Assembly: GCF_004799515.1 (NCBI RefSeq)
Contig: NZ_SSMX01000041.1
Coordinates: 12,687-76,686 of the forward strand
Origin: Phenylobacterium sp.
Lineage (GTDB): Bacteria; Pseudomonadota; Alphaproteobacteria; Caulobacterales; Caulobacteraceae
Direction: 5' to 3'
Length of the DNA: 64,000 bases
Within the stretch, counting starts at the first letter, position 1, and the number at the start of each line of letters is the position of its first letter. The notes under the pieces are model-generated. The model had not been told where the DNA came from and searched no databases. It was given only the letters and a program-made list of their open reading frames with translations. Positions 1,218 through 54,191 of the stretch are shown piece after piece. A program made the translations under genes and the position numbers.

Positions 1218-1312
1218 GCGCGTCCCCGGATGAGCCCGTGGAGGTTAAGGCGCTGCGCTCCGTGTTGGAAGATCGGCTTTCGCCTGCCCTGGTTGGCCTG
1301 CGGCGCATAGCA

Positions 1313-1575
1313 AGAGGGCGGCGCTCCGGTCGCCCGGGGCGTCGCCCTCTCATCCAGATCCGTTGGGGGATCTGTGCCTTCCAGGTCGATCGCGCCTTCG
1401 GTTCTCGGGCAAGCCCGATGGTTTTCCGTCGCGTCCGGTGTCTCAGGAAGTCCGTCCCGGGTCGCCCCGGTCCTCGCCTCTAGAAACCTCCTGCTCGCCT
1501 CTGCTTCTGGGTCCGCCGTTTCCGGCCTCTCCGTTCGCCCGCGCCGCAGTTCCTCTCGGCAAGGGAACGGTGCTC
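1313..1575 (-). ncRNA. Candidate structured non-coding RNA (family not recognised)
   Basis: No credible ORF; chain of stems at 1313-1350, 1355-1374, 1405-1418, 1457-1470, 1515-1526 and 1549-1568; loops read CUUG, GCGA and GAAA on the minus strand; that strand is purine-rich. Confidence 0.55.
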
Positions 1576-1601
1576 CCGATCCGGAAATCCGGCAAGCGGC
1601 G

Positions 1602-1711
1602 GAATCGCGAGGCTTGTGACTCAGCGGTCGAAAGCCTGTGGACGGACGGTTGATAAGCTGGGGTCCGTCACGGATTCCCTCAGCCTTTCCAAGGCCTGGA
1701 TCTATCCACAG
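1602..1711. promoter_or_regulatory. Putative regulatory region with DnaA-box-like inverted pair and three GANTC (CcrM) sites
   Basis: CTGTGGA 1636-1642 and TCCACAG 1705-1711; CTATCCACA 1702-1710 is one mismatch from TTATCCACA; GANTC at 1602, 1618 and 1673; GACGGAC/GTCCGTC inverted repeat 1641-1669. Confidence 0.4.
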
Positions 1712-1726
1712 AAAGCCGCGGAACCG

Positions 1727-3547
<1,821 letters not shown>

Positions 3548-3607
3548 TGAGCGGCTGGAGATAAAGCCCCCAGCCGGCAATGCAAGACGGGCTGGGGGAA
3601 GACGGCC

Positions 3608-18234: not shown

Positions 18235-19536
18235 ATGGGCGCCGGACTACTGAACTCGCTGGCCGAGGTGGCCAAGCGGCTGCTGCAGGATCGCGCGGAA
18301 GACCGTGGGCCCGGCGGAGTCTCTCGCCGTCGTTCCGCCGCCGGGCGGCCGGGCGAGGCGGCGGTGGTGCCGGTCAGCAGCTTCCGCATGGTGGGGCTAG
18401 CCGAGGTCCAGGGCAGGCTCGCCGACAGGTGGCCGGCCGTCGCCGAGAAGGTCCATGCCACCGCCCGCAGCGTCATTCAGCGGCACCTTGTGCGCGGCGA
18501 CGTCTTCGATCAGCACGGCGACGACGGCTACCTCGTGTTGTTCGCGACGCTCGGGCCTGACGAGGCCGAGTTCAAGAGCCGCATCATCGCGCGCGAAATC
18601 GTTGAGCGCCTGCTGGGCGAGGACGAGGCCGCTGGCCTGAACATCGCCGCCCACTGCGCGGCGATCCCCGCGCAGGCCCTGGTGGACGGGGACGTGGCGT
18701 TCGTCCTGGACCAGGCGCTGGAGGCGGCGGAGAGCAAGTCCGCTCCTACCGCGCCGGTGTCGGAGGCTGCGTCGGCCCCCTGGGTTTTCGCCGCCGATGG
18801 GCCTGGGGCGGAAGGCGCGACACATGGCTATTCGCCGGTGTGGGACACTCGGCAGATGACGCTGCTGCACTTCCGGGCGCACGCGTCCCGGGCCTGGGCC
18901 GAGTTCGACGACCGGACGCGGGAGCTCCAGGCCTACAAGAGCGATATCGCCCTGGTGCGCGCGGTGGCCGTCGATCTGCGGGGGTTGGCCGCAGAGGGCC
19001 GCAGGCTTCCCGTGACGGTGGCGATCGAGCATTCAAGCCTGTCGGTAAACAGCCAGCGGGCCAGCGTGATCCAGGCCCTGGCCGTCATCCCGGGCGCGGC
19101 GCGCAAGATCCTGACGCTGGAAATCAGCGCCCCGAGCGACGGCTTCTGGACCTACGGCTGCAAGTCGTTCCTGGAGATGATCCGGCCGCTGGGCGTCGGG
19201 CTGGCGGCGCGGGTGCGCCTGGACGAGGCGCAGGCCATGCCGCCGGCCGGAGGATTGAAGTGCGTGGCCACGGACCTGGAGGGGCCGCCGCTGCGCGAAG
19301 CGGCCAGCCTGCGGCTGCTCACGGCCTTCGGCGGGCTGGCGCGGGCGCAAGGGCATGAGTGCGCGGCCTACGGGCTGAAATCCAGGGCCCTCGTCCTGGG
19401 GGCGATCGGCGCGGGGTTCCGCTACGTGGCAGGGCCGGCGGTGCATCCCGACGTGGGCGGCCTGTCCACCGCGCTGCGGTTCGAGCCGATCGACCTCTAC
19501 GCCGACATTCAGCGCGCGGCGGCCCGCGCGTCGTAG
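18235..19536 (+). CDS. Degenerate GGDEF-like/EAL-like protein
   Basis: HGDDGYLVLF resembles the GGDEF strand; YSPVWD, LTLEIS, CAAYGL and GFRYVAG align in order with EAL-fold landmarks, but catalytic residues are missing. Confidence 0.6.
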   Translation: MGAGLLNSLAEVAKRLLQDRAEDRGPGGVSRRRSAAGRPGEAAVVPVSSFRMVGLAEVQGRLADRWPAVAEKVHATARSVIQRHLVRGDVFDQHGDDGYLVLFATLGPDEAEFKSRIIAREIVERLLGEDEAAGLNIAAHCAAIPAQALVDGDVAFVLDQALEAAESKSAPTAPVSEAASAPWVFAADGPGAEGATHGYSPVWDTRQMTLLHFRAHASRAWAEFDDRTRELQAYKSDIALVRAVAVDLRGLAAEGRRLPVTVAIEHSSLSVNSQRASVIQALAVIPGAARKILTLEISAPSDGFWTYGCKSFLEMIRPLGVGLAARVRLDEAQAMPPAGGLKCVATDLEGPPLREAASLRLLTAFGGLARAQGHECAAYGLKSRALVLGAIGAGFRYVAGPAVHPDVGGLSTALRFEPIDLYADIQRAAARAS

Positions 19537-52029: not shown

Positions 52030-52821
52030 GTGAAGACCAAGGGTATCACCGGCCTTAAGGCCGCGCTTGTTGCGGCCGCCAGCTTGACCGCGATGGGCCT
52101 TGCGACCCACGCCTCGGCCGACCAGACGATCTACCTGCAGAACCTGTCGATGAACGAGAACTACGAGGCCAGCATTGCGGGCTTCGGCGCGGCCTATTCC
52201 AACATCATGACGTTCGCGGTCAGCACGACGCCGAACGGCCCGACCACCAACATTTCCGGCTTCTGCGTGGACATCTTCCACGAGATCACCACCGGTGCGC
52301 TGCCGAACTACGCCTACAACTCGACGTTCGGCAACACGACCAACGCCCTGACCCACAACTTCGACTATGAGCCGCCGACCTATCCGGCCTCCGACCCGCT
52401 GGGCAAGGACACGAAGCTCTCCACCACTCAGATCAAGGCGATCACCGATCTGGTGGACACCGGCTGGATCCTCAACGAGGAGGCCGCGCCCGACGCGGCG
52501 CTGCAGGACGCCGCCATCCAGGCTGCGATCTGGGAGATCGAGAACCCGGGCGCCGTCAGCCTGATCGACACCGGCCGCTCGGACTTCGGCGCCTACGAGG
52601 CCGCGTACGCCAGCTACGTCGCCGGCACCTACACGGACCTCACCACCTCCAGCGACCTGATCTACATGATCACCGACGAGAACAGCGATCCGGCGCACCA
52701 GTCCTTCGCCATCGGCTGGCCGAACGCCGTGCCGGAACCGGCGACCTGGGCCCTGATGCTCACCGGCTTCTTCGGCGTGGGCGGCATGCTCCGCCGCCGC
52801 CAAGCCGCCGCCGCGGCCTGA
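52030..52821 (+). CDS. PEPxxWA-CTERM surface protein with putative thioester (TED/TQXA-like) domain
   Basis: Signal peptide ending HASA; C-terminal VPEPATWALMLTGFFGVGGMLRRR; internal FCVD, IQAAIW and HQSFAI motifs; GTG start. Confidence 0.88.
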   Translation: MKTKGITGLKAALVAAASLTAMGLATHASADQTIYLQNLSMNENYEASIAGFGAAYSNIMTFAVSTTPNGPTTNISGFCVDIFHEITTGALPNYAYNSTFGNTTNALTHNFDYEPPTYPASDPLGKDTKLSTTQIKAITDLVDTGWILNEEAAPDAALQDAAIQAAIWEIENPGAVSLIDTGRSDFGAYEAAYASYVAGTYTDLTTSSDLIYMITDENSDPAHQSFAIGWPNAVPEPATWALMLTGFFGVGGMLRRRQAAAAA

Positions 52822-52850
52822 GCCGGGCGACCACAAGCCTGAAACGATCG

Positions 52851-52878
52851 AGGGGCGCTCTTCGGAGCGCCCCTTTTT
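52851..52878 (+). terminator. Rho-independent terminator
   Basis: AGGGGCGCTC-TTCG-GAGCGCCCCT followed by TTTT. Confidence 0.9.
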
Positions 52879-52931
52879 CGTTGGCGTGACCAAACATCCG
52901 CTTTCCCAGGGAAGGCGGGATTAGATTCGAG

Positions 52932-54191
52932 TCAGGCGCTGAGCCGCATGGGCGCGCGGCGCGGGCTGCGGCTCAGGAGCTGGGTGTAGAGCCGGGTCAG
53001 GCCCTCGAAGGTGTGGTCCCAGCTGTGCCGCGTCTCGGCGCGCCGGCGCGCGGCGAGCTTGAGCGCGTCCAGGTCGCGGGCGAACAGGGCCTCCACCGCC
53101 TCGGCCAGGTTGGCCGGATCGACGCCATGGGCTAGCTGGCCCACCGTCTCGTCCAGCAGCTCGCCGACGCCGCCCTTGTTGGGGCCGACCACCGGCAGGC
53201 CGGCGGCCATGGCCTCCAGCACGACCAGGCCGAAGATCTCGTTCTCGTTGGCATGCAGGAAGGCGTCGCAGCTGGCGATCACCCCGGCCAGCCGCTCGGG
53301 CGCGCGCTCGAAGCCGATGCAGGCCACGCGGCTGTCGTACTTGGCGCCCTGGCCGGCGCCGATCAGCACCAGCCGGTAGGGGTCGCCCAGCATCTCCACC
53401 GCCGCCACCATGGAATCGATGTTCTTCTCCCGCGCAGGGCGGCCGGCGAAGACCAGTAGGCGGGAGTCGTTGGGGAAGCCCAGGCGCTTCAGGAGAGCGC
53501 CACGGTCGCCGCGGCTGGGATGGAACAGGTCCAGGTCGACGCCCAACGGATGGACGCTGACCCGGTCGACGCCGGCGTCGGCCAGGCGGCTGGCGGTATG
53601 GCGGCTGGGCGCCACGACATGGTCGAAGCGCCGGTAGGCTTGGGCCCAGAAGTTGAAGGTCGGCTGCTCGGCCCAGTCGCCGAGATGCAGGGCCGCGAGC
53701 GTCGGGGCGTCGGTGTGGCAGACGCCCACCACCGGCACGCCCAGGGCCTCGCCCGCGTCCATGGCCGCGTGGCCGGGCACGAAGACGTCGCCGGCCTCGA
53801 TGATGTCCGGCTCCAGGAGCTGCAGCACCGCCGACCATTTGTTCGGGCTGGCCGGCATGCGGTAGCCGTCGCCGAACGGCAGCTTGGCGGCGCCGACCGT
53901 ATAGAGCCCCGGCCCGTCGGCGCGGGTGGCCGCGCCCGGCACCACCAGGGTGTGGCGGATGTCCGGCCGCCGGGTTTCCAGCCAGCCGCGCTTGGCTGTC
54001 AGGTAACGCTTCACCCCGCCGGACCGCGGCGCGTACATCATGGTGGTGTCGATCAGGTGGAAGCCCTGCGCCGGATCGTCGAACCCGGCGACCGGGCGTT
54101 CGATCCGGCCCGTGCGCGGGCGAGGCAGCACTCCGAGCTTACCGGCGGAGACATCGACCAATCGTCCGGCCCTTCTTTCCTCGAACCCCAT
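52932..54191 (-). CDS. GT4 (GT-B) glycosyltransferase
   Basis: YAPRSGGVKRY, VFAGR..REKN, NEIFGLVVLEAMAAGLPVV; start uncertain. Confidence 0.88.
   Translation of the reverse strand: MGFEERRAGRLVDVSAGKLGVLPRPRTGRIERPVAGFDDPAQGFHLIDTTMMYAPRSGGVKRYLTAKRGWLETRRPDIRHTLVVPGAATRADGPGLYTVGAAKLPFGDGYRMPASPNKWSAVLQLLEPDIIEAGDVFVPGHAAMDAGEALGVPVVGVCHTDAPTLAALHLGDWAEQPTFNFWAQAYRRFDHVVAPSRHTASRLADAGVDRVSVHPLGVDLDLFHPSRGDRGALLKRLGFPNDSRLLVFAGRPAREKNIDSMVAAVEMLGDPYRLVLIGAGQGAKYDSRVACIGFERAPERLAGVIASCDAFLHANENEIFGLVVLEAMAAGLPVVGPNKGGVGELLDETVGQLAHGVDPANLAEAVEALFARDLDALKLAARRRAETRHSWDHTFEGLTRLYTQLLSRSPRRAPMRLSA

Follow-up and report, generated by a model that had tools for sequence, protein, structure and literature searches.

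The 64,000-nucleotide stretch of a Phenylobacterium genome analysed here (the window) carries a gap without annotated gene between uup, which encodes an ABC-F ATPase, and the gene of an NMT1/THI5-like substrate-binding protein, and in our study a predicted structured small RNA of about 254 nucleotides (nt) has been located in this gap on the minus strand (Table 1). The binding-protein gene is the first of a three-gene operon of the NitT/TauT-type ATP-binding cassette (ABC) class (binding protein, ATPase and permease); along the minus strand uup precedes the gap and the transporter follows it. The initial annotation of this DNA had described a gap of roughly 500 base pairs (bp) without a credible coding sequence, which measures 509 bp, and a series of six hairpins in it. 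That a real, independent structured RNA gene is present here is the sole step of our interpretation which is firmly supported. The genome annotation leaves the gap empty and the RNA family described below corrects this.

Comparative folding has shown a predicted architecture in which a closing helix P1 surrounds the tetraloop-capped branches P2, P3 and P4, and is followed by the hairpin P5 and then by a terminator hairpin. The shared architecture was obtained from per-sequence folds of 29 copies (alignment A1); a structure of 67 pairs was built by hand from per-sequence folds on a 19-sequence alignment, converted into a covariance model (R1) and realigned with Infernal. Plain MAFFT with RNAalifold recovered a part of the fold and once picked a pairing between the 5' block and the terminator instead. 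R1 matches the window at 1306-1565 with 273 bits (E 5e-76). Over the whole fold 92.4% of the cells were found to be paired in comparison to 80.7% in shuffles and 34-47% in slid controls, in which the partners were shifted by 1-3 columns; since the underlying alignment of the 100 non-redundant loci was fitted to the model, the paired percentage is somewhat too high, though the margin over both controls is still large. Both sides change in 53 of the 67 pairs, and a covariation score of 0.323 was obtained, the shuffles giving 0.136 and the slid controls 0.03-0.05.

In P1 (helices 1-2) one pair occurs as C-G 69, U-A 19 and U-G 9 times and another as G-U 38, G-C 21 and C-G 12 times. The CUGC/GCAG helix of P2 is replaced by CCGC/GCGG and CAAC/GUUG, with its inner hairpin capped by GAAA or GCGA; in helices 3-5 a pair of P2 is found as U-A 47, U-G 26 and C-G 22 times, and a pair of the hairpin as C-G 32, G-C 15 and U-A 11 times. 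P3 (helices 6-10) has changes on both sides in all pairs but one, its middle helix being merely 70% paired, and P4 (helices 11-14) has them in 14 of 14 pairs. The P5 stem covaries as well, and the terminator helix (helix 16) is 97% paired with changes on both sides in 10 of 15 pairs.

All six hairpins of the initial annotation are present in the sequence, and five of them coincide with conserved helices of the family at the positions it had given. The hairpin at 1313-1350 is the terminator and that at 1355-1374 is P5, whereas those at 1405-1418, 1457-1470 and 1515-1526 form the CUUG, GCGA and GAAA tips of P4, P3 and P2, respectively. The sixth, GTTCC/GGAAC at 1549-1568, has to be given up: it is unconserved, it straddles the predicted -10 box and the 5' end of the RNA, and its GGAAC arm belongs to the covarying helices P1 and P2, with both of which the hairpin conflicts. 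The initial annotation had overlooked P1, a long-range helix, as well as the P2 helix and the longer stems to which the P3 and P4 tips belong. In four Phenylobacterium loci (L073, L088, L089 and L129) the P2 domain is enlarged by extra tandem GNRA hairpins of the GCUGGCGACAGC type, giving RNAs of about 276 nt or longer; L089 escaped the anchor search owing to this enlarged domain.

The folding energy separates neither the gap from shuffled sequence nor one strand from the other (z of -1.98 on the minus and -2.02 on the plus strand), and structure beyond chance is accepted here because of conservation and covariation. G-U and U-G cells number 434 and A-C and C-A cells 142 (3:1), and the excess of G-U over A-C therefore places the RNA on the minus strand, the one favoured by the initial annotation, in whose sense direction the covariance-model matches also run. 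GNRA motifs are 3.6-fold more frequent in sense (minus, 1810) than in antisense (501). A protein-coding reading was tried and rejected, since the RNA lengths modulo 3 (35/35/30) lack 3-periodicity and stops are present in all frames, about one in each. The predicted RNA is thus a minus-strand, non-coding one.

The signals at both ends of the RNA are also shared among the copies. A TTG[CT]NN-N17-NANNNT promoter was found at one fixed distance in 97 of 98 copies, with CACCGT being the most frequent -10 hexamer (38/97). Transcription would start about 7 nt past the sigma-70-type promoter TTGCCG-N17-CACCGT, at the first base of P1, and would end at the conserved terminal hairpin; the predicted minus-strand RNA would begin at GCCGAGAGG and end after CCCUCUUGCUAU. 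An own promoter at a conserved distance, which is a mark of an independent small RNA gene, is thus predicted. The initial annotation had already noted a long terminator-like last hairpin with a weak U-tail, and the hairpin is indeed conserved, its sequence being unusually so among the copies. Between species the alignments diverge directly past UUGCUAUG, and the stretch of roughly 90 nt which separates the terminator from the binding-protein start codon (1218-1305, minus strand) is unconserved.

Table 1. Position of the predicted RNA, its structural elements, its signals and the neighbouring genes in the window
Feature	Position	Strand	Remarks
NMT1/THI5-like substrate-binding protein gene	222-1217	minus	Pfam and NCBIfam
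Gap without annotated gene	1218-1726		509 bp, between binding-protein gene and uup
Predicted structured small RNA	1307-1560	minus	about 254 nt; 5' end from promoter spacing, 3' end from terminator
Terminator hairpin	1312-1351 (with tail to 1306)	minus	GCGA loop; tail UUGCUAUG
P5 hairpin	1355-1374	minus	CAGAUCC-CCCAAC-GGAUCUG
P1, 3' strand	1376-1385	minus	CCUGGAAGGC
P4 hairpin	1386-1438	minus	large internal loop (GGAAAACC / AACCGAA); CUUG-capped tip 1405-1418
P3 long imperfect hairpin	1440-1488	minus	GCGA cap, tip 1457-1470; from per-sequence folds
P2 domain	1491-1549	minus	CUGC/GCAG helix enclosing GAAA-capped hairpin 1515-1526
P1, 5' strand	1552-1560	minus	GCCGAGAGG; pairs with 1376-1385
-10-like hexamer	1567-1572	minus	CACCGT; ends 1 nt before model position 1
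-35-like hexamer	1590-1595	minus	TTGCCG
Conserved YCACA element	1613-1622	minus	GAGTCACAAG; about 55 nt upstream of RNA; from aligned upstream regions
Two forward DnaA-box-like 9-mers	1637-1656	minus	TTATCAACC and CCGTCCACA at an 11-bp period (2 bp between them); near -100 and -89
Inverted DnaA-box-like 9-mer	1702-1710	plus	CTATCCACA (consensus TTATCCACA; close to TGTGGATAA); about 145 nt upstream of RNA
uup (ABC-F ATPase)	1727-3580	minus	Pfam and NCBIfam; co-oriented upstream neighbour of RNA

The initial annotation had recognised no RNA family in this region and had suggested a comparison across relatives with covariation analysis; the region was found to be conserved and compensatory changes are present. 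BLAST of the gap gave same-genus matches in 21 of 24 genomes, in which the conserved part is the interval that had been annotated (window positions ~1582-1297). R1 gave full-length sense-strand matches in 100 of 100 non-redundant loci (E 5e-78 to 3e-12), whereas its antisense matches cover the palindromic terminator only. In Phenylobacterium the RNA is found in 35 of 38 genomes by BLAST and in 10 of 10 sampled genomes by R1, with 1-4 matches per genome and two full copies in the genome under study. The exact 20-mer of P5 occurs in 113 stretches of species-representative genomes, nearly all labelled Phenylobacterium or Caulobacterales; a contig of P. aquaticum KACC 18306 is among them. Two loci carrying it (L052 and L122) were rejected as family members, every other anchor being absent, and are taken as chance matches.

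In a second genus of the same family R1 matched 17 of 41 genomes, with one copy in each, and two further genera of Caulobacteraceae also have true matches, while none was obtained in 120 genomes from other families of the order. A divergent subclade of the second genus (L188, equal to G346:C1 ~804165-804425, L189 and L151) keeps the promoter, GUCGAGAGG, P5 and the terminator and differs in the sequence past the 5' block; neither uup nor the transporter lies within 2 kb, and a hybrid kinase or receiver-domain gene follows. A divergent copy is carried by a 4.0-Mb single-contig genome of the second genus. Of the Rfam 15 covariance models, ctRNA_pGA1 scored highest in the region with 23.4 bits, against a gathering score of 45, and covered the terminator only; nothing relevant was obtained at E up to 0.1 in six homologous loci. 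Literature searches also returned no description of the family. The predicted RNA family is hence uncatalogued and confined to Caulobacteraceae among the genomes searched, and it would make a well-defined new entry for the RNA databases even if the link to DnaA considered below fails.

Weak R1 hits in other genera and on contig C14 of the genome under study (18428-18518) were rejected as ordinary GNRA-capped terminators. At L174, L177, L179-L182 and on C14, ordinary terminators (e.g. after an rpsI-like gene) share the form GGGCGC-UUCGGG-GNRA-CCGGAGCGCCC, from which the weak false matches arise, and two-tier terminator hairpins with a GNRA cap seem to be customary in these genomes. These observations speak for an alternative without functional RNA, in which the gap would hold an intergenic element that is repeated or a series of palindromes resembling terminators. 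The multi-copy nature of the element, the ordinary terminator style of its GC-rich GNRA-capped hairpins and a folding z of merely about -2 on both strands count in its favour. The long-range helices P1 and P2 covary, which already contradicts this explanation; moreover, the synteny of each copy class is fixed in more than 100 species, the promoter spacing is fixed, the G-U excess is strand-specific and the copy number is just 1-4 per genome. It is therefore considered highly improbable.

The genes surrounding the copies bear on the function of the RNA. Out of 131 copies, 64 (plus 7 partly resolved) have the order uup, RNA, binding-protein gene; in 16 the RNA is followed by a MASE1 histidine kinase gene, in at least 21 by a convergent gene, and 7 have rnd upstream and other genes downstream. 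uup stands upstream of the RNA in 87/131 copies, and every copy class keeps its fixed synteny across the species mentioned above. The second full copy in the genome under study (contig C6, 61958-62213) possesses the upstream box array as well and lies between rnd (RNase D) and convergent 2-hydroxyacid dehydrogenase and ppx genes. An hdaA-like gene is present about 5 kb from this copy (contig C6, 67064-67693; TIGR03420 E 9e-32, below the curated cut-off). The initial annotation had left the choice between a standalone small RNA and a long 5' leader of the ABC operon. The promoter at fixed distance, the conserved terminator, the second copy facing a convergent gene and the varied downstream genes of the 131 copies argue for the former, and with convergent and heterogeneous genes downstream the leader role is therefore not a general one.

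A leader function could still be proposed in a more elaborate form, as a cis-acting, riboswitch-like attenuator of the NMT1-type ABC operon in which P1-P4 would sense a ligand or protein and the terminal hairpin would be a regulated terminator. The 5' block (GAGAGG..GCGGCGC) would alternatively pair with the 3' arm of the terminator, and the other copies would either be orphans or act on different genes. It counts in favour of this explanation that riboswitches (TPP, FMN and the xanthine/NMT1 motif) often control binding-protein genes of the NMT1/THI5 type. So do the unusually conserved terminator sequence and the co-oriented order of RNA and binding-protein gene, about 100 nt apart, which is kept in four genera (10 of 11 loci in the second genus and all five loci of the two further genera). 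Over 14 bp the 5' block is complementary to the terminator 3' arm, and this is kept in 94.6% of the cells; however, the alternative pairing shows no compensatory change and stands at the shuffle level, and in the 24 sequences in which a G of the 5' block is changed to C, a compensating change is found in the P1 partner but not in the terminator. The pairing is retained as a minor possibility. Further, the nucleotides of the junction and internal loops differ between genera, unlike those of a ligand pocket, and no match is given by the known NMT1, TPP and FMN models. A convergent gene follows in at least 21 copies, the MASE1 kinase gene in 16 and unrelated genes in others, and the second-genus subclade has neither uup nor a binding-protein gene nearby. 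The likeness to terminator-type riboswitches (TPP, FMN, xanthine NMT1 motif) lies in a terminator-ending structured RNA which in the ancestral locus stands directly before an NMT1-type binding-protein gene, whereas here Rfam riboswitch models find no match, many copies have no co-oriented downstream gene and the alternative pairing does not covary. Overall, the leader explanation seems unlikely, and read-through control at the binding-protein locus alone is possible.

Upstream of the RNA, an inverted box, tandem forward boxes and a YCACA element form an arrangement common to copies of all four genera. Clustered matches to TTATNCACA were found to be position-specific in most of the 98 copies, as putative sites mostly with 1-2 mismatches. 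The inverted box, scored against TTATCCACA, is present in its position bin in 61/98 copies with up to one mismatch and in 84/98 with up to two; a forward box (up to two mismatches) is found near -100 in 57/98 copies and near -85 in 30/98. The control hits per sequence are 0.06 in downstream and 0.23 in shuffled sequence. It is the fixed position that carries the box signal, because the 9-mer is not over-represented genome-wide. These conserved DnaA-box-like 9-mers would tie transcription of the RNA to DnaA and hence to replication or the cell cycle.

A 9-mer with 2-bp spacing, that is an 11-bp period, is the arrangement used for cooperative DnaA binding, and the tandem boxes fit such arrays. 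The DNA itself may then be the functional unit, a cluster of boxes titrating or remodelling DnaA like the clusters of Bacillus subtilis and the datA/DARS sites of Escherichia coli, with a secondary RNA that modulates DnaA occupancy. The position-fixed boxes, conserved across copies and genera, and the distance of about 5 kb between the second copy and the hdaA-like gene are in agreement with it. On the other hand, the RNA fold is under strong selection (53 compensatory pairs), which is unexpected of an incidental transcript, there are merely 3-4 putative boxes per locus, mostly imperfect, and the box lacks genome-wide over-representation. This explanation is considered quite improbable. To our knowledge, the B. 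subtilis and datA/DARS clusters do not include a conserved structured RNA gene. Both they and the present array consist of clustered 9-mers in intergenic DNA away from the origin, whereas the clusters outside oriC are defined by measured DnaA binding (for B. subtilis, PMC3245932) and the boxes here are read from the letters and mostly imperfect. One B. subtilis cluster is located between gcp and ydiF (PMC3245932); YdiF belongs to the ABC-F proteins (PMC13622287), as Uup does, and this parallel also counts for the DNA-level explanation.

The explanations are ranked in the order of a trans-acting regulatory RNA, a protein-binding structural RNA, a leader of the ABC operon and a DNA-level DnaA-titration site. 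The best of them, with about an even chance of being right, is an independent regulatory RNA gene of about 254 nt which acts in trans and is possibly controlled by DnaA. As to its mode of action, which is the weakest step of this explanation, the RNA would be a rigid, nuclease-resistant scaffold, and by analogy with other small RNAs the Phenylobacterium scaffold would show the C-rich P5 loop CCCCCAAC to pair with G-rich sites in mRNA. This loop is nearly invariant in Phenylobacterium and unpaired in 83 of 89 copies. Moreover, Hfq is present and is the only known RNA chaperone family found in the genome; CsrA (PF02599), ProQ and Ro60 (TROVE) were not found in this 99.4% complete genome.

A number of points weigh against a trans-acting, DnaA-controlled RNA, besides the inflation of the paired percentage already given. 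The C-rich loop is unconserved beyond Phenylobacterium, the P5 loops of the second genus being GCAA, UUCG or UUCA, and an unpaired C-run elsewhere is found in merely 5 of 11 second-genus copies. GUUGGGG, the complement of the loop, is not enriched at ribosome-binding sites before start codons of this genome in comparison to permuted 7-mers. The features found universally are the scaffold, the 5' block and the terminator; this suits protein binding equally well as base pairing. The ends of the RNA and its expression are predictions from sequence, and a simple terminator scan did not call the terminator on the minus strand, the U-tail being weak (tail UUGCUAUG), so that the manner of termination is tentative. 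As regards the boxes, many of the 9-mers lie 1-2 mismatches off TTATCCACA, the first box reads GTTAACA in some species and the box count genome-wide is at the chance level.

The universal features lead to the second-ranked explanation, a structural RNA that would bind or sequester a protein or scaffold a complex, as 6S, CsrB and Y RNAs do, and would not pair with mRNA. Conservation across genera is seen for the fold, its tetraloop caps, the 5' block and the terminator, but for no single-stranded seed. The 5' block and the terminator 5' arm each contain GAGAGG..GCG(A/G)CGC, which could give two binding sites, and with about 250 nt and 67 pairs the RNA is more complex than pairing RNAs usually are. 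Against it stand the lack of an evident partner, with CsrA, ProQ and Ro60 not found in the genome, and the lack of a constantly linked protein gene, uup and rnd each being tied to one copy class; further, the fold lacks the rod shape of 6S, and no match is found in Rfam. The protein-sequestering multi-hairpin RNA which the initial annotation had considered is not supported in the sense of CsrB/RsmZ. These need CsrA/RsmA and GGA loops, whereas here the loops are GNRA, CUUG or CCCAAC; the Y RNA/Ro60 system likewise needs a TROVE protein, for which this genome has no match. Protein binding in this broader sense is possible but rather unlikely.

The trans-acting regulatory RNA was also compared with known RNAs of Caulobacteraceae. 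In CcnA (CCNA_R0094) of Caulobacter crescentus a CCCC loop pairs with GGGG near ribosome-binding sites (PMC8959179). It resembles the present RNA as a small RNA of the same family with DnaA boxes in its gene region, a C-rich loop and a place in a replication or cell-cycle circuit. CcnA is located at the replication origin, its promoter contains a CtrA box and it is 182 nt long, features which are not shared by the RNA here. The latter is of about 254 nt, follows uup or rnd, and has its copies on contigs C36 and C6 with dnaA on C48; it has a TTGCNN-N17-CACCGT promoter, this copy is without TTAA-N7-TTAA, and its fold is multi-branched and GNRA-capped. The C-rich loop is a shared feature in Phenylobacterium, and the two are set apart by description, not by sequence.

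GsrN of Caulobacter acts on G-tracts in mRNA leaders through an exposed 5' C-rich loop, and by BLAST it is reported in Phenylobacterium also (PMC5869019). It is likewise a Caulobacteraceae small RNA with a C-rich loop, of about 100 nt, with a sigma-T/EcfG promoter and usually beside general stress response genes. On the other hand, the RNA here is of about 254 nt, has the sigma-70-like TTGCCG-N17-CACCGT and is neighboured by uup, rnd or the ABC operon; here also the distinction is by description, not by sequence. The sigma-T/EcfG promoter consensus is GGAAC-N16-17-CGTT. The large RNAs raiA, OLE and ROOL are similar in having been found by conservation and covariation, in their multi-helix GNRA-rich folds and in their restriction to lineages. 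The present RNA resembles none of them in sequence or model, is smaller than OLE or ROOL, belongs to one alphaproteobacterial family, is multi-copy and has a conserved upstream DNA motif.

Caulobacteraceae are the main bacterial cell-cycle model and few of their small RNAs are understood. The constrained 5' block and terminator, and chiefly the position-fixed DnaA-box-like sites, offer a concrete and testable link of replication control to an RNA regulator. In a wider and only tentative proposal, DnaA would switch on, or be titrated at, the structured RNA gene beside uup, with the second copy about 5 kb from hdaA, and the RNA in turn would act back on translation or the cell cycle as part of a replication-coupled module. 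If true, a structured RNA dedicated to a DnaA-box cluster would be seen here for the first time, in parallel to the B. subtilis cluster beside the ABC-F gene ydiF.

Just beyond the window, a 256-amino-acid open frame follows the ABC permease gene (L187:3910-4677, minus strand), for which Pfam and NCBIfam give no match. DnaA-box-like 9-mers were observed at other places of the genome as well. On contig C13 (~52460-52955) three of them stand at an exact 11-bp period (TTTTCCACA-GC-CCATCCACA-GG-CTGTCCACA) directly after a hybrid kinase gene. They are followed by a gene-free stretch of about 200 nt which ends in a good U-tract terminator before a convergent gene, and this stretch may be a second, unrelated small RNA gene under a similar box array. 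On contig C24 (84994-85024) a perfect TTATCCACA and TTGTCCACA lie 22 nt apart, directly after the stop codon of a gene which, by eye, we take to be that of the ribonucleotide reductase small subunit; two near-perfect boxes within 150 bp are found at just three places in the genome, of which this is one.

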